Source of the DNA: Escherichia phage UE-S1
Sequence record: ON568341.1
Length of the DNA: 64,000 nucleotides
Direction: 5' to 3' (one strand)
Positions 35,080 through 47,414 of the stretch are shown piece after piece (the stretch's first letter is position 1; each line of letters begins with the position of its first letter). A program made the position numbers and the translations under genes. Below the pieces are notes generated by a model that worked only from the letters and a program-made list of their open reading frames with translations, did not search any database and was not told the DNA's origin.

Positions 35080-35481
35080 ATGTTAAATGAACGTATTAAA
35101 AATGCACTATATGTATTGAACCAAGAAGTTAATTCTATTCATAAAAGTACTGAGCGATATAAAGTATTACATGAAATTAGACAAGAATTGGAATCCATTA
35201 ATAAGGGAAAATGGGTTCTTGAACGCGAACGAACTATTGTTGAAAAAGCAATTGCAAAATTCATCTCGGAACGTTATGGTAAAATTTCAGAGGAAGATGT
35301 ACTAATGAACTTACATCTTTCACAAACGGAAGTGATGGAGAAATTTCATTTTGATTCATTAGACTGGTTAGAAATGATCATGGAATTGGAAGAAGAATTC
35401 AATGTAGAAGTAGATTTATATTATGAAAAACAAGAAACCAAACTATATGAACTAGCAGAACACATTAAACTAATGATGTAA
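35080..35481 (+). CDS. acyl-carrier-protein-like protein
   Basis: C-terminal FDSLDWLEMIMELEEEFNVEVD matches the ACP phosphopantetheine-attachment region (DSLD..E..M.LEEEF); ~55-aa N-terminal extension. Confidence 0.55.
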   Translation: MLNERIKNALYVLNQEVNSIHKSTERYKVLHEIRQELESINKGKWVLERERTIVEKAIAKFISERYGKISEEDVLMNLHLSQTEVMEKFHFDSLDWLEMIMELEEEFNVEVDLYYEKQETKLYELAEHIKLMM

Positions 35482-35534: not shown

Positions 35535-35909
35535 ATGAGTATACTAGAAATAATAGTTTCAAACATTCTTATTCCATATTGGAAACCAATTTCTTTTGCA
35601 TTATTAATTAGTGGTTCAGCAATTGCGGGTTGGAAAGCTAATACTTATTATACTGGTTATCAAGAAAGTATAGAGCAACAAATAGCCAAAAAAGTTGATA
35701 TAGCACTTGATAAAATGCAACAAGAAAATACAAAAAGCTATCTTGAAACAAAAAAAATTATGGAAGATAATACAAAAGTCATTGAAACAAAGGTTCCTTA
35801 TATAGTAGAACGTGAAGTTTATAAAAATGTTTGTTTAGATGAAGATGGTGTGAAAGTACTGAATGAACTTAAACAAAATTCTAAAGCGGCAAGGAATAAA
35901 TTCAAATGA
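35535..35909 (+). CDS. i-spanin-like protein
   Basis: N-terminal TM helix (ISFALLISGSAIAGW) then charged coiled-coil-like region; overlaps next gene by ATGA. Confidence 0.5.
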   Translation: MSILEIIVSNILIPYWKPISFALLISGSAIAGWKANTYYTGYQESIEQQIAKKVDIALDKMQQENTKSYLETKKIMEDNTKVIETKVPYIVEREVYKNVCLDEDGVKVLNELKQNSKAARNKFK

Positions 35910-36214
35910 AAAAAATGTTAGTACCGTTTATTTCTTTTTTAATTATAAGTGGATGTGCAGAACAAGTAAAAGTACAATCCCCTGCACCAATTAAACAAGA
36001 AATTCTGTTAGAAAGATGTGATGATGACACACCACTACCACAAAAAATTATGATTGACCAAAACGGATTTAAAGGGTATAGTGGGAGTGAAATTCTCAAA
36101 GTTCTTACCCGTTGGGATGCAATCTATAACGAATGTGCATTGAAACATGATGCATTGATCAAAACCATTCGTGATTTACAAGGTAAAGATATTAAAATAA
36201 ATATCAAGGATTAA
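35906..36214 (+). CDS. o-spanin-like lipoprotein
   Basis: Lipobox-like FLIISGC at N-terminus; position immediately after TM/coiled-coil gene. Confidence 0.5.
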   Translation: MKKMLVPFISFLIISGCAEQVKVQSPAPIKQEILLERCDDDTPLPQKIMIDQNGFKGYSGSEILKVLTRWDAIYNECALKHDALIKTIRDLQGKDIKINIKD

Positions 36215-41695: not shown

Positions 41696-42272
41696 ATTAG
41701 TATATTACTATGGTAGTATGTCCAGTGGTAAAAGCACTCATCTTTTACAAAACGCATATAACCATAAGAAAAATGGAATGAAGGTAATTTACTTAACCAG
41801 TGCACTTGATGATCGTTATGGAACCGGAAAGATCACTTCAAGAATTGGTATTGAAGCTGATGCTGAAGTAATTCCAAAAAATGACATTAGTGTTCTTCTT
41901 AAAGTTAAAGAAACACTCAATAATGATGTTGACATTAACAGCATTTATGTTGATGAATGTCAATTTTTAAACAGAGAGCAGATTGACCATTTGGCTGATA
42001 TTGCCGATAATTATGGTGTTGATGTTTCCTGTTATGGTATTCGAACAGATTTTGAATCTAATCTATTTGAAGGTTCCCACCGACTTTTTGAAATAGCTGA
42101 TGATATACATGAACTTAAGAATGTGTGTGAGAATCAGAAGTGTGGGAAAGAAGCTACCATGAATGCACGTATTGTAGACAGTACTGAAAAAGTTTTCATT
42201 GGTGGTAACGAATCCTATAAAAGTTTGTGTAGAAAATGTTATAAAGAATATATGAGGAATAAAAATGGTTGA
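41688..42272 (+). CDS. tk: thymidine kinase
   Basis: P-loop YYGSMSSGKST; C-terminal Cys pairs (CENQKCG .. CRKCY). Confidence 0.85.
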   Translation: MGKLVYYYGSMSSGKSTHLLQNAYNHKKNGMKVIYLTSALDDRYGTGKITSRIGIEADAEVIPKNDISVLLKVKETLNNDVDINSIYVDECQFLNREQIDHLADIADNYGVDVSCYGIRTDFESNLFEGSHRLFEIADDIHELKNVCENQKCGKEATMNARIVDSTEKVFIGGNESYKSLCRKCYKEYMRNKNG

Positions 42273-42486
42273 TTCATTCATGAAACGAGTTTTAACAGAT
42301 GTTCTATCTGGATTTAAAAAAGCAACTAATATTATTTTCAGTTCAATTGTGATGGTTATTACTGTATTGACATTTTCTCTAGTGTTACATTTTGTGCCAT
42401 TCTGGTTAATCTTTATTGTATTAATTGGTCTTCTATGTGCACATGTTTATCATGTTTACAGTGAAATGTTGGATAATGACGATTAA
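42265..42486 (+). CDS. small membrane protein
   Basis: Two hydrophobic helices; terminator follows. Confidence 0.45.
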   Translation: MVDSFMKRVLTDVLSGFKKATNIIFSSIVMVITVLTFSLVLHFVPFWLIFIVLIGLLCAHVYHVYSEMLDNDD

Positions 42487-43752: not shown

Positions 43753-43884
43753 ATGAATGGACTAAAAAAGTTTGGTAAAGATTTTCTACAGTGCATCAAA
43801 TATACATATGATGCAAATCCAGAAATGACTGCGATTGTAGGTGTATTTATTGCATTAGTTGTATTAAGTTTCATTATGGGGTAA
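43753..43884 (+). CDS. small membrane protein (43 aa)
   Basis: Not on track; AAAGGAAA RBS; C-terminal TM segment TAIVGVFIALVVLSFIMG. Confidence 0.35.
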   Translation: MNGLKKFGKDFLQCIKYTYDANPEMTAIVGVFIALVVLSFIMG

Positions 43885-44098: not shown

Positions 44099-44509
44099 AT
44101 GATTGAAATGGAAGGCATTCTGGTGTATGATCCAGATCGTGGAGCTATGAAAAAGAAGAAGGATTTCTGGTTAGTCCTACAACTTCCATTACAGTTGGTT
44201 AGATACTACCAGTACTTCATTCGAACTGACTTACATATTGACATTAAAGACCCACAATGGGGTGCACACGTCAGTATTGTTCGTGGGGAAGTGCCACCAA
44301 ATCCAGAGTACTGGAAGAAGTACCATGGTAAAAAAATCAAAATAAAATTTAATCCTGATATCATACAAGTGAAAGACAAAAAGAATCCAGGTTCGTTCTT
44401 TATTATAGAGTTTGATGATGAATTTATTGGTCATATTCGAAATGAATTAGGATTACAATCGAAGTTCTTACGTTATCACATTACAGTTGGTAGAACGTAC
44501 TACGATTAG
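44099..44509 (+). CDS. 2H-phosphoesterase-like protein
   Basis: Two H-x-[ST]-x motifs ~70 residues apart (HVSIV and HITVG), the arrangement typical of 2H phosphoesterases. Confidence 0.45.
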   Translation: MIEMEGILVYDPDRGAMKKKKDFWLVLQLPLQLVRYYQYFIRTDLHIDIKDPQWGAHVSIVRGEVPPNPEYWKKYHGKKIKIKFNPDIIQVKDKKNPGSFFIIEFDDEFIGHIRNELGLQSKFLRYHITVGRTYYD

Positions 44510-44527: not shown

Positions 44528-44555
44528 TTGACTGAAAATAAAAATATGCTATAAT
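44528..44555 (+). promoter_or_regulatory. sigma70-like promoter with extended -10
   Basis: TTGACT - 16 nt - TATAAT preceded by TGC; upstream of lysozyme gene. Confidence 0.5.
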
Positions 44556-44673
44556 ACTTAAACACTTGAAAATAACGTTTTAGTACTGTAGAAAGTCCGA
44601 TGAGGCTTTTGCAAAATGGCCTCTTTGCCATCTTTGTGATTGCCCCGTCTTAACAATCAACAAAGGAGGCGTT

Positions 44674-45600
44674 TTGAAACAAGCGAAAAAAGCACTGAAA
44701 ACTAAAATTGCCGTAGGCGTATTAGTTTCATCAGCCCTATTCGCTGCTATTGGATTTTATGGTTTTTCACGACATGATCATGTACCATCATTAGACGAAA
44801 GTCAGGTGCATAATTTAAAACCACAGTTTACTCAAATTCAAAAGCAGGAACTTCCAGTGGTGTCAATACCGAAAGAAGTTTCAAGCAGCGAGAAACATTA
44901 TACGGTTCAACCAGGTGATAGTTATTATTCTATTGCTAAAAAGTTTAAGCCTAAAAATGTACAACTTGAAGAGTATGTTATTTTGTTGAAAAATATCAAT
45001 TTAAATGCTACACTTCATACTTCTCAGGGTATCTTTATCCCAACAAAAGAGGATTTGAAAAACATATTATTACCAGATGTGACTGTACTGTTTGATTATA
45101 CTGATCCTGAAATTGTCAATCACATCAAAGAAGCTGAAGGTTCAATTGAATTTCAGTCTAAAAATAAACGCCGTTTACTTGGTGGGCAAGTTGGTGTATC
45201 ATATCGTAATTCTAAATTTTATCCATATCGTGATGTAAAAGGTAACTACACAATTGGGTACGGACATTACCTTGGAAGGAATGCTTCAGATGCAAGTAAA
45301 TATCGCAATGGAATTACTAAATCGCAAGCACATGAACTTTTATTGTCTGATATGGAACGAATTAATAATGATTTAATTTTATTATTGAAGAAAAGAAATG
45401 CAACAAACCTTACGGTTGAACAACAAAGAATTTTATTTGAGATGGCATTTACTTTAGGTGTTGATAAATTAAACACTTTCAACAAACTATGGAAAAGTGT
45501 TGAAAATCAAAATTACAACAAGTTCAAAAAAGAAATTAAGAATTCTCTATGGTATCGACAAGTTGGAAACCGTGCAGAATTGTTGTTAAGTTCACTCTAA
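44674..45600 (+). CDS. membrane-anchored LysM-lysozyme (T4-lysozyme-fold; endolysin candidate)
   Basis: N-terminal TM/signal-anchor (IAVGVLVSSALFAAIGFYGF); LysM motif YTVQPGDSYYSIAKKF; C-terminal YTIGYGHYL .. GITK .. SLWYRQVGNRAELL resembles T4 lysozyme; TTG start after AAAGGAGG. Confidence 0.75.
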   Translation: MKQAKKALKTKIAVGVLVSSALFAAIGFYGFSRHDHVPSLDESQVHNLKPQFTQIQKQELPVVSIPKEVSSSEKHYTVQPGDSYYSIAKKFKPKNVQLEEYVILLKNINLNATLHTSQGIFIPTKEDLKNILLPDVTVLFDYTDPEIVNHIKEAEGSIEFQSKNKRRLLGGQVGVSYRNSKFYPYRDVKGNYTIGYGHYLGRNASDASKYRNGITKSQAHELLLSDMERINNDLILLLKKRNATNLTVEQQRILFEMAFTLGVDKLNTFNKLWKSVENQNYNKFKKEIKNSLWYRQVGNRAELLLSSL

Positions 45601-45617: not shown

Positions 45618-45950
45618 ATGCTAAATCTAAATATTCAAGGCAACGTTGATATCACTCCAGCAATCCAAGATGCTATTTATAATGAAGCAAAAAGTCTGGA
45701 TAAGTACCGTACTTCTTCAGTACTAGACATTGGTGTTCATGTTAAGAAAGAGCATAAAACTCAATATGCTGTAACTTTAACTGCTGGTAGTAAATCAGTA
45801 ACTGCTGATGATGCTGATTTGTATAAAGCAATTGTTGAATCTTTTGATAAGATGGAAACTGTATTCAGTAAAGACAAAAGCATTAAATTACACCGCCGAA
45901 ACCATCCAGAACACCCCGTTCTTGATGATTTGACAGAAAACGAAGAGTAA
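45618..45950 (+). CDS. hypothetical protein
   Basis: AAGGAAGG RBS; terminator follows. Confidence 0.5.
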   Translation: MLNLNIQGNVDITPAIQDAIYNEAKSLDKYRTSSVLDIGVHVKKEHKTQYAVTLTAGSKSVTADDADLYKAIVESFDKMETVFSKDKSIKLHRRNHPEHPVLDDLTENEE

Positions 45951-46003: not shown

Positions 46004-46399
46004 ATGAATTATTCCTGGATGGAAATTGTAAAATCTCTAATATCAACACATGATATGGACTTACCTGAACACTTAGTTATTAATAGATGGTACTATCCAT
46101 ATCCAGATAACCGTTGTGTTGGGATTGGATTTTTTATTAATGAAAAATCTCAATATATTGGATTAATTGAAGATTATACAAAAACCAACATTGCGTTCTC
46201 AATTGAGTTGAATGTAGATCACATAAAATACTACACTAATAAAATGGACGAAGACGATGGTGATGTTATAATTCCAGCAGAAATAGATGAAGCTTCATTT
46301 TTTCAGTTATCATTAATTCATGATGTATCTGATATTACTTATGATAATGTGAAAGACCTTTTTATATTGTACAATAAACTGTATAATTACTTTTTATAA
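46004..46399 (+). CDS. hypothetical protein
   Basis: ORF in array. Confidence 0.5.
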   Translation: MNYSWMEIVKSLISTHDMDLPEHLVINRWYYPYPDNRCVGIGFFINEKSQYIGLIEDYTKTNIAFSIELNVDHIKYYTNKMDEDDGDVIIPAEIDEASFFQLSLIHDVSDITYDNVKDLFILYNKLYNYFL

Positions 46400-46412: not shown

Positions 46413-46598
46413 ATGGAATATACCATATGTGTAATTGTATGTATCGTAGCCTTACTTGCAGGAGTTGGTGTGATGATTTACTGTGATGCGGAACCCAGTA
46501 CAGAAACAGGAACAACTATTGAACTTAAGCCTGGTGTTAAGGTAAATGATTCATATTGTTACGATCCACATAGTAATAAGTATGTGATTTGTCTATGA
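46413..46598 (+). CDS. small membrane protein
   Basis: N-terminal TM helix ICVIVCIVALLAGVGVMIY. Confidence 0.4.
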   Translation: MEYTICVIVCIVALLAGVGVMIYCDAEPSTETGTTIELKPGVKVNDSYCYDPHSNKYVICL

Positions 46599-47005
46599 AA
46601 AAGTTTGATATTAAACCTATGATCGATGCTATCGAAATTAAATTAAAAAATACTAAAAAGACAGATAGTACATGTTTGTTCTTTAGCTTAGATAAAATGT
46701 ATTATGAAACACACGTGTCAAGTTATGATAGAACAGGAAATCTCTTCATCCGTACTTATAACATATTTTATAGTGACGATGTTTTTATGATAGATATAAA
46801 TCTGGATGAAAGTATAGTGTTGATGTATATTGAGGATGTTCAATCAACAGAACAACGAAACGGGACTCTTCCTATTGCTGCTACAGAGGAAGAGTTTATG
46901 CAATATCAGTTCATTGATGATACCTTTGGCATTGACTTTGACACATATCAGAGTATAATGAGGGTATACGAACTTTATGAGGATTATGTGATTGGACGTT
47001 ACTAA
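46589..47005 (+). CDS. hypothetical protein, paralogue 1 of 2
   Basis: C-terminal QYQFIDDTFGIDFDTYQSIMRVYELY paralogous to next ORF. Confidence 0.5.
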   Translation: MSMKKFDIKPMIDAIEIKLKNTKKTDSTCLFFSLDKMYYETHVSSYDRTGNLFIRTYNIFYSDDVFMIDINLDESIVLMYIEDVQSTEQRNGTLPIAATEEEFMQYQFIDDTFGIDFDTYQSIMRVYELYEDYVIGRY

Positions 47006-47414
47006 AATTTCAAAATTTAATGAAACTTTAAAGTACTTTGCTGAACACGAAATCAGTACTGAAAGACGCGGTTTAATTTCATACAATCCACATCGTGTTC
47101 TGTACACTAATAATTTTCAGGGTACAGTTCGTATTAAATTTCGTAATGCACTCGAAGACAATGATGAATTGTTAATTTTACTACGAAAAAGTAAGATTGA
47201 ATTAACATACGTAACTCACGATATTGAAAGTGAGTTGATGTGGCACACGCTGTCAAAAAAAGAAGGTTCATTGCCAGTTGTTGATAATGGCCCTGAAACA
47301 CTTGATCAGTACATGTTCATTGATGATACATTTGGCATTGACTATTCTGCGTATCAATGTATACTAGCTATATACGAAAAATATTACGACCGTCTACGTG
47401 ACAGATTAATTTAA
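46992..47414 (+). CDS. hypothetical protein, paralogue 2 of 2
   Basis: C-terminal DQYMFIDDTFGIDYSAYQCILAIYEKY. Confidence 0.5.
   Translation: MDVTKISKFNETLKYFAEHEISTERRGLISYNPHRVLYTNNFQGTVRIKFRNALEDNDELLILLRKSKIELTYVTHDIESELMWHTLSKKEGSLPVVDNGPETLDQYMFIDDTFGIDYSAYQCILAIYEKYYDRLRDRLI

Follow-up and report, generated by a model that had tools for sequence, protein, structure and literature searches.

A RaK2-like jumbo coliphage lysozyme with a predicted membrane anchor, a LysM domain and a structured leader RNA

Introduction

The closest described relatives of the lysozyme analysed here are its orthologs 121Q gp532, CBB_187, GAP32 gp180 and RaK2 ORF029. CBB_187 was described as having an N-terminal transmembrane helix, a weak LysM domain and a lysozyme domain; 121Q gp532 was named as a homolog with a clearer LysM, a signal-arrest system was proposed and toxicity was noted, since induction of CBB_187 inhibited growth of E. 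coli ('data not shown') (Buttimer et al. 2017, PMC5259590). Such toxicity is as expected for an exported lysin. Here we analyse a 64,000-nucleotide stretch of Escherichia phage UE-S1 (record ON568341.1; hereafter the window) that carries, at 44674-45600 on the plus strand, a new allele of this family with the same three-domain layout, synteny and TTG start. Because the family and the signal-arrest-release (SAR) idea are both in the earlier paper, the finding was already known in silico, and the novelty of the protein is low. New here are the absence of several SAR hallmarks, the better fit of a tethered model, and a structured leader RNA without an Rfam match.

Several better-known enzymes resemble the 308-residue window protein in part. 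P1 Lyz (class I SAR) and R21 (class II) share with it the GH24 fold, the Glu/Asp/Thr triad and a marginally hydrophobic N-terminal Sec signal for export without a holin, which in the window protein is only predicted to stay uncleaved. Their anchor lies directly against the catalytic domain and has a part in its activation, and their catalytic residues are spaced E-x8-D-x5-T, whereas the window protein has 123 residues and a LysM domain in between, an E-x31-D spacing, no Cys, a tail of charge +5 and no recognised pinholin partner. T4 lysozyme (gene e) is the best structural and sequence match to residues 145-308; it is a soluble cytoplasmic enzyme of 164 residues that depends on holin T and has no anchor, no LysM and no counterpart of a 23-residue Glu-Asp insertion. 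E. coli MltD is similar in combining membrane attachment, LysM and a domain that cleaves glycan strands, and the LysM region of the window protein matches it weakly, but MltD is an outer-membrane lipoprotein with another catalytic fold and a housekeeping role. A further likeness is to Lys44 of Oenococcus phage fOg44, a Gram-positive Sec-exported endolysin that we take to be exported without a holin and restrained until the membrane is de-energised. Gram-positive signal-peptide endolysins presumably differ in being cleaved by signal peptidase, in acting on hosts without an outer membrane and in having other catalytic folds.

Results

Domain anatomy of the lysozyme

An earlier note, made by reading the sequence without database searches, had described a T4-lysozyme-like domain preceded by a hydrophobic helix and a LysM motif, different from the soluble T4 e lysozyme. 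The open reading frame (ORF) and all the features were found at the positions given there, and Pfam, AlphaFold2, comparisons with the PDB and the charge pattern agree with that architecture, which is real and does set the protein apart from T4 e. The parts of the gene, all on the plus strand, are as follows.

44663-44669, plus strand: Shine-Dalgarno (SD) sequence AAGGAGG, 4 nt before the TTG start
44674-45600, plus strand: coding sequence of the anchor-LysM-lysozyme protein, 308 aa, TTG start, TAA stop
44674-44706, plus strand: N-tail MKQAKKALKTK, residues 1-11, charge +5, predicted to be cytoplasmic
44707-44766, plus strand: hydrophobic signal-anchor helix IAVGVLVSSALFAAIGFYGF, residues 12-31, kept in 36 homologs
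44767-44892, plus strand: predicted disordered periplasmic linker, residues 32-73, about 42 aa, pLDDT (AlphaFold2 confidence) below 50
44893-45039, plus strand: LysM peptidoglycan-binding domain, residues 74-122, from Pfam, AlphaFold2 and profile comparison
45106-45597, plus strand: GH24 T4-lysozyme-like catalytic domain, residues 145-308
45136-45138, 45232-45234 and 45250-45252, plus strand: codons of the catalytic residues E155, D187 and T193

TTG is the earliest possible start codon of the ORF, and no in-frame ATG was seen before about residue 228; thus no alternative start retains the N-terminus. A start codon other than ATG (TTG or GTG) is used in 16 of 18 orthologs. PHROG 15410 matched the protein over its full length (E 2.7e-157). 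For conservation we used an alignment of 36 homologs reaching down to 37% identity.

Pfam Phage_lysozyme (PF00959) matched residues 184-298 (E 3.4e-10; 40.8 bits against a cut-off of 22.3) and was matched by all 36 family members. T4 lysozyme gave the top Foldseek matches in the PDB for residues 145-308 (E about 1e-5 to 1e-6), and a profile of the same residues matched it with an E value of 6e-17. D187 and T193 align with T4 D20 and T26, while the equivalence of E155 to T4 E11 rests on an E-G motif and the structural alignment. All three residues are invariant across the alignment. Their spacing is E-x31-D-x5-T, rather than the canonical E-x8-D-x5-T, because a conserved insertion (KRRLLGG...KFYPY) lies between Glu and Asp. 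The KFYPYKD motif is shared by soluble lysozymes of 148-154 aa from small phages, in which the Glu-Asp spacing is much shorter.

The LysM domain was less clear to Pfam, with a partial and marginal match of PF01476 at residues 76-95 (E 2.2e-4; 21.5 bits against a cut-off of 20.9) and matches in 20 of the 36 members. A profile of residues 68-128 matched solved LysM domains (LytE, Ecp6, YaaH and a chitinase LysM) with E values of 1e-9 to 1e-6. AlphaFold2, run with the 36-sequence alignment, modelled residues 73-308 with a pLDDT above 90, whereas residues 1-72 stayed below 50. Residues 75-121 were folded as the beta-alpha-alpha-beta unit that a LysM domain requires (strand 75-77, helix 84-91, helix 98-108 and strand 119-121; pLDDT above 90).

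The linker between anchor and LysM measures 34-60 residues in the family (median 44). Inside this otherwise variable, disordered segment, the tetrapeptide IQKQ (residues 55-58, nt 44836-44847) is conserved (I55 in 34/36, Q56 in 35/36, K57 and Q58 in 28/36 each). Its conservation suggests that the tether may hold a docking site for a partner protein.

The window is 86-93% identical in DNA to the Asteriusvirus jumbo coliphages ph0011, 121Q, PBECO4 and phAPEC6, and its source is an Asteriusvirus-like (RaK2-like) jumbo coliphage. The closest allele of the lysozyme is the 'lysozyme' of ph0011 (96% identity); 121Q gp532 is 80% and CBB_187 55% identical. At the same syntenic position, Mimasvirus (CBB, GAP32), Eneladusvirus (BF, fHe-Yen9-03), Alcyoneusvirus (RaK2, Muenster) and the Munch group carry orthologs of 50-58% identity. 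Downstream of this position are genes for HPF/RaiA, a CCA-adding enzyme, a Nudix hydrolase and a glutaredoxin, and the lysozyme gene was present there in all RaK2-like genera sampled. The family is narrow: it comprised 81 clusters at 90% identity and 12 representatives at 50% identity (E <=1e-30) among 1.84 billion proteins.

Topology of the anchor and comparison with SAR endolysins

The charge is +5 ahead of the helix, and the sequence beyond the helix is acidic. This distribution predicts an N-in/C-out topology, which would place the LysM and catalytic domains in the periplasm without a holin. The earlier note had proposed a SAR-type, holin-independent endolysin or a membrane-tethered lysozyme. 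An exported, tethered lysozyme fits best, and the specific SAR label fits poorly in view of the distance to the catalytic Glu, the lack of Cys, the five lysines of the tail and relatives that carry an extra N-terminal domain.

The helix itself is compatible with SAR behaviour. Residues 12-31 give a Hessa-scale sum of +1.15 kcal/mol, contain 47% Gly/Ala/Ser/Thr and are thus marginally hydrophobic, with a peak Kyte-Doolittle value of 1.99. In the sequences that we take to be those of the P1 Lyz and R21 helices, Gly/Ala/Ser/Thr make up 53-63% and the Hessa-scale sums are 0.46 (P1 Lyz) and 0.78 (R21). A SAR helix is expected to hold about 50-60% or more of these weakly hydrophobic residues. The values of the window helix overlap those computed for these two, whereas the helices of the family at large are richer in Leu (mean sum +0.6 kcal/mol; mean Gly/Ala/Ser/Thr 37%; Leu-rich cores).

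Other hallmarks of SAR endolysins are missing. In these enzymes the helix adjoins the catalytic domain, with the Glu within about 10-25 residues; here the last anchor residue (31) and E155 are 123 residues apart, with the linker and the whole LysM domain between them. At this separation neither R21-type refolding nor P1-type disulfide caging can operate. Class I enzymes also have a regulatory Cys for the disulfide cage, whereas the 308-aa protein has no Cys at all, as is the case for 26 of the 36 family members. By membrane topology rules, SAR release is expected to need a short N-tail able to cross the bilayer; the tail found here carries five Lys in 11 residues, and N-tails in the family have a charge of +2 to +6. 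In the distant relatives P0085, P0087 and P0089, a mutually homologous domain of 75-95 aa, predicted to be cytoplasmic, precedes the anchor, which makes release from the membrane implausible for those proteins. Their genes have their own SD and start codon and lie in syntenic T4-like contexts: HPF follows P0085 and P0087, and the genes that come after P0089 are a gp13-like neck gene and tail sheath. No pinholin partner was found in the genes adjoining the lysozyme gene; the neighbouring small membrane proteins matched only PHROGs of unknown function.

Sites compatible with signal peptidase (AAA|F, AIG|F) occur in most family members according to a hand-made (-3,-1) rule. A disordered tether of 42 residues should be about long enough to bridge the gap between inner membrane and peptidoglycan. 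With a tether of this length the enzyme could act while anchored. Several defining features of SAR endolysins being absent, we favour, on the evidence of sequence and predicted structure, a stably tethered enzyme, and consider a SAR mechanism doubtful for this protein.

An anchor followed by a long linker and a GH24 domain recurs outside the jumbo phages. In lysozymes of the KFYPYKD subfamily from smaller phages (L036 and L045, on IMG/VR contigs of 47-53 kb, and P0094), the helix is SAR-like and rich in Gly/Ala/Ser, e.g. IPTALLSALLAVMGGSAIWSAA, and a linker of 60-100 residues, in some cases with PKP repeats, comes before the catalytic domain.

A conserved leader RNA precedes the gene

The 5' region of the gene (44562-44673, with a core at 44566-44627) is structured: two hairpins, P0 and P2, flank GUAGAAAGUCC. 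Its elements are as follows.

44528-44555, plus strand: sigma70-like promoter, TTGACT-16 nt-TATAAT with a TG extension, 11/12 consensus matches
44566-44583, plus strand: leader hairpin P0 (TTGAAA ataacg TTTTAG)
44588-44598, plus strand: conserved leader motif GTAGAAAGTCC, a single exact copy in the 64-kb window
44602-44623, plus strand: leader hairpin P2 (GAGGCT tttgcaaaat GGCCTC) with the conserved loop UUUGUGCAAA

The motif GTAGAAAGTCC was near-invariant in 20 leaders from at least four genera whose proteins are about 50% identical. Five of the six pairs of P0 show compensatory changes across genera in a structure-fitted alignment, and one pair of P2 is AU in 10 sequences, CG in 9 and UA in 1. 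In this alignment 96.9% of cells pair, against 88% in shuffles, and eight pairs have double changes; none of 500 shuffles reached the observed values, and sliding the partner columns collapsed the signal. These values are to be read with the relatedness of the sequences and the fitting of the alignment to the model in mind. The G-U pairs in the stems indicate that the sense-strand RNA is the structured form. A covariance model built from five Mimasvirus leaders (R1) matched the window only at 44570-44627. Every RaK2-like locus examined gave exactly one match, ahead of the lysozyme gene, and matches elsewhere were at chance level; upstream of the relatives with long N-terminal domains the model found no leader.

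Two pairings are open to the invariant motif: with the P2 loop UUUGUGC, forming an H-type pseudoknot, or with the 5' arm of P2, forming a competing hairpin that RNAalifold prefers. As the motif is invariant, covariation does not favour either pairing. Folding the leader of the window by minimum free energy (z = -2.4) did not reproduce the conserved P2, and we relied on the comparative evidence instead. The probability that the SD is paired was 0.79 in the window, which is not significant against 0.65 +/- 0.21 in shuffles, and the same was true of the Munch group and RaK2; in Mimasvirus, Eneladusvirus and EJP2 it was 0.83-1.0, which no more than 3% of shuffles attained. General sequestration of the SD is thus unsupported in the window and in several lineages.

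Rfam gave nothing at gathering thresholds over the whole window, and over the leader only chance-level matches at E values up to 10. The leader is therefore a conserved structured element without a match in the Rfam library. Scanning IMG/VR for the motif as an exact pattern returned RaK2-like contigs only, plus three matches from one GC-rich phage that lacked both the P2 stem and a lysozyme and were set aside as chance. An upstream ORF of 17 codons (start 44600) was dropped since it is not conserved, for instance in GAP32. A role of P0 as a promoter operator was ruled out, its position being fixed to the motif and not to the -10 element.

A sigma70-type promoter ahead of an endolysin gene was unexpected. 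Sites with at least 10/12 consensus matches, the sole basis on which they were called, were present in 16 of 20 homologous loci (equivalent sites in L001-L032), no more than about 70 nt ahead of the leader motif, against a background of 0.15 such sites per 150 nt. The distance from promoter to leader is lineage-specific (-7 to -70 nt), with the promoter inside the upstream gene in Mimasvirus and Eneladusvirus. The T4-type late promoter TATAAATA had no exact match in the 20 leaders and none within one mismatch downstream of -133. Among the loci of the distant relatives (L084-L088), L086 shows a terminator together with ATAAATA motifs that resemble late promoters, immediately ahead of its lysozyme gene.

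In T4, translation of gene e is controlled by an inhibitory leader hairpin that late promoters bypass (PMC3014915). The two systems are alike in that the lysozyme gene is open to non-late transcription and has a structured leader near the ribosome-binding site. They differ in that TATAAATA is absent from inside the present leaders, that the core lies 50-70 nt upstream of the SD with covarying hairpins of its own, and that SD sequestration is significant in only some genera. Because no late promoter was found in any of the 20 leaders, we rejected the T4 gene e mechanism as a direct copy. The leader RNA probably controls translation of the toxic product. A more specific proposal is that P0, GUAGAAAGUCC, P2 and the possible pseudoknot form a gene-specific cis-regulatory RNA that gates translation of a Sec-exported, permanently tethered endolysin, so that the lysis clock would be set at endolysin synthesis by an RNA switch or RNA-binding factor, not by a holin. 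We put this forward as speculation that is more likely wrong than right by a wide measure.

Spanins, holins and other lysozymes

The earlier note had placed a spanin pair about 9 kb away and had recognised no holin. Both statements held: an i-spanin and an o-spanin candidate lie 8.5-9.1 kb upstream, and none of the window's small membrane proteins was recognised as a holin.

35535-35909, plus strand: i-spanin, Rz-like, with an N-terminal transmembrane helix (phrog_1152, E 3.7e-27)
35906-36214, plus strand: o-spanin candidate, a lipoprotein whose lipobox LIISGC was read directly off the sequence

The i-spanin assignment agrees with the annotation of 121Q gp511 as an Rz-like spanin. An acyl-carrier-protein-like gene (35080-35481, plus strand; PHROG matches to acyl carrier proteins at 1e-7 and 6e-5) lies immediately upstream of the pair, and such a gene likewise adjoins a spanin-like gene in a published Erwinia jumbo phage. 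On either side of the lysozyme gene are genes for small, conserved membrane proteins that have one or two transmembrane helices (42265-42486, 43753-43884 and 46413-46598, all plus strand). PHROG scans of the three gave no lysis annotation and only families of unknown function; each could be a holin, pinholin or regulator that escaped recognition. In RaK2 no recognisable T or RI and no large-hole holin were found. In fEgEco12, gp406c weakly resembles T4 holin T (HHpred probability 89.9) and is encoded 128 kb from the gene.

RaK2-like phages encode three proteins with lysozyme domains: a hub protein of about 890 aa, a T4-type lysozyme of 162 aa beside the hub, and the 308-aa type. tblastn of the 308-aa protein against the 64-kb window revealed no second lysozyme-domain gene there. 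The hub (96 kDa in Eneladusvirus), which like the 162-aa lysozyme is a product of the baseplate module, has been detected in virions. The 162-aa paralog, encoded between baseplate genes, has been reported as an 18.1-kDa product in Eneladusvirus virions, from few peptides, and as LysUE1 it is muralytic in vitro. By contrast, the phAPEC6 ortholog of the present protein, gp293c, was not found by virion mass spectrometry, and the 96-kDa hub and the 18-kDa small lysozyme were the only lysozymes in three Eneladusvirus virion proteomes. The earlier note had named association with the virion as an observation that would speak against its proposal; in these published proteomes the 308-aa ortholog is absent.

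Discussion

We assign the 308-aa protein a role as lysis muramidase with moderate confidence. The full reading that we prefer says that the gene encodes the endolysin of a RaK2-like jumbo phage, inserted by Sec through an uncleaved anchor, remaining tethered and restrained in translation; taken as a whole it is tentative, with a chance that falls somewhat short of even. In outline, host Sec would insert the protein as a type II (N-in/C-out) membrane protein by way of its uncleaved N-terminal signal anchor. The disordered tether of about 42 residues and then the LysM domain would carry the T4-lysozyme-type domain (E155/D187/T193) across the periplasm to peptidoglycan. Being exported across the membrane by Sec, the enzyme would need no holin-made hole to reach its substrate. 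It would most likely remain anchored and not be released in the manner of a SAR endolysin. Its lethal activity may be held back by low, controlled translation from a TTG or GTG start behind a structured leader, and the energised membrane possibly also restrains it until the end of infection; the spanin pair would then complete lysis. Of this picture, the domain anatomy, the invariant catalytic residues, the predicted topology, the conserved leader and, from published proteomes, the absence from virions are shown; we infer that Sec exports the protein, that it stays tethered for good, that it serves lysis and that its timing is controlled.

Several observations weigh against this. The sole experimental datum on the family is the unpublished toxicity. 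For an endolysin gene, a sigma70-like promoter and early/metabolic neighbours (tk, HPF/RaiA, CCA-adding enzyme, Nudix) are unusual. The separate soluble 162-aa lysozyme, LysUE1, is muralytic in vitro, and a weak T4-T-like holin candidate is annotated in fEgEco12; together these two mean that a canonical route of holin plus soluble endolysin may exist. The anchor is marginally hydrophobic and compatible with SAR release, (-3,-1) signal-peptidase motifs are present, and in the window the predicted sequestration of the SD falls short of significance.

Some of these points are what a different division of labour would predict, in which the 308-aa protein is an accessory peptidoglycan remodeller made early and lysis falls to the soluble T4-type lysozyme of 162 aa together with a T-like holin and the spanins. 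The promoter ahead of the leader in 16/20 loci, the lack of TATAAATA in any leader, the early/metabolic neighbours, the activity of LysUE1 and the weak likeness of fEgEco12 gp406c to T all agree with it. But the gene of the 162-aa paralog is flanked by baseplate genes, and Eneladusvirus virions were found to contain the 18.1-kDa product; early synthesis of an active, exported muramidase would kill the host prematurely; the leader and the weak start codon point to repression, not to early use; L086 has late-promoter-like motifs just upstream; and RaK2 has no recognisable T and RI. We judge such an accessory role unlikely, though with a share of the probability that deserves attention. True SAR behaviour, in which the helix would leave the bilayer once a (pin)holin depolarises the membrane, freeing and activating the enzyme, is also unlikely, if by a slightly larger measure. 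It draws on the marginal hydrophobicity of the helix (+1.15 kcal/mol, similar to what we take to be the P1 Lyz and R21 values), its 47% Gly/Ala/Ser/Thr, the lack of a recognised large-hole holin near the gene or in RaK2, and the publication of the idea for CBB_187 together with toxicity on induction. It has to contend with the 123 residues and LysM between anchor and catalytic Glu, the absence of Cys, a spacing of E-x31-D-x5-T instead of the class II E-x8-D-x5-T, the lower family mean of Gly/Ala/Ser/Thr (37%) with Leu-rich cores, the five lysines that would need to traverse the bilayer, the relatives with a cytoplasmic N-domain of 75-95 aa and the failure to find an adjacent pinholin.

That the N-terminus is a cleavable Sec signal peptide, leaving a mature, soluble periplasmic LysM-lysozyme, is improbable. 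The n-region is positively charged, and A-A-A or A-I-G at positions 21-30 satisfy the (-3,-1) rule in most members, although that rule was hand-made. The hydrophobic stretch, however, is 17-20 residues long and extends past the candidate sites (FGFIGF, FYGF), no polar c-region follows, TMHMM-based annotations give a transmembrane helix, and the helix is internal in the relatives with long N-terminal domains. Hardly credible is a virion-associated 'tail' lysozyme for entry, as annotated in Munch, Muenster and G17. A PHROG tail-lysozyme family was the second-best match, over the catalytic domain only, but virion analyses of phAPEC6 and Eneladusvirus did not detect the protein, neither an OB-fold nor a beta-helix domain of the gp5 type is present in it, its N-terminal anchor is unsuited to a baseplate component and its gene lies outside the baseplate module.

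The tethered-endolysin reading matters because RaK2-like phages have yielded no convincing holin and have scattered lysis genes and, in this protein, their sole non-virion lysozyme predicted to reach the periplasm alone. If it is the true endolysin and stays tethered, it would represent a third style of holin-independent endolysin beside the SAR and signal-peptide enzymes, and control would have to act on its synthesis or on membrane energisation. The conserved leader RNA gives a concrete handle on lysis timing and is the most interesting lead. In practical terms, the family offers a natural LysM-bearing lysin against Gram-negative bacteria that is toxic when expressed with its anchor, a point relevant to enzybiotic cloning.

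Neighbouring genes

A homolog of the ribosome-hibernation factor HPF/RaiA (45618-45950, plus strand; PF02482, 3.3e-10) begins 17 nt past the lysozyme stop. It follows the lysozyme gene in most lineages examined, directly so in Asteriusvirus, Mimasvirus, Eneladusvirus and two of the distant relatives.

Directly upstream of the lysozyme gene is a gene for a protein of 136 aa (44099-44509, plus strand) with two H-x-S/T motifs and a sub-threshold Pfam match to 2H-phosphoesterases. Its fEgEco12 ortholog is annotated by HHpred as Acb1-like (anti-CBASS nuclease); a sequence search against the PDB gave no confirmation of this identity for the window protein, and we did not retain it.

Further downstream, three consecutive ORFs (46004-46399, 46589-47005 and 46992-47414, plus strand) look like tandem paralogs, and the latter two share the C-terminal motif Y-x-F-I-D-D-T-F-G-I-D-x-x-x-Y-Q.

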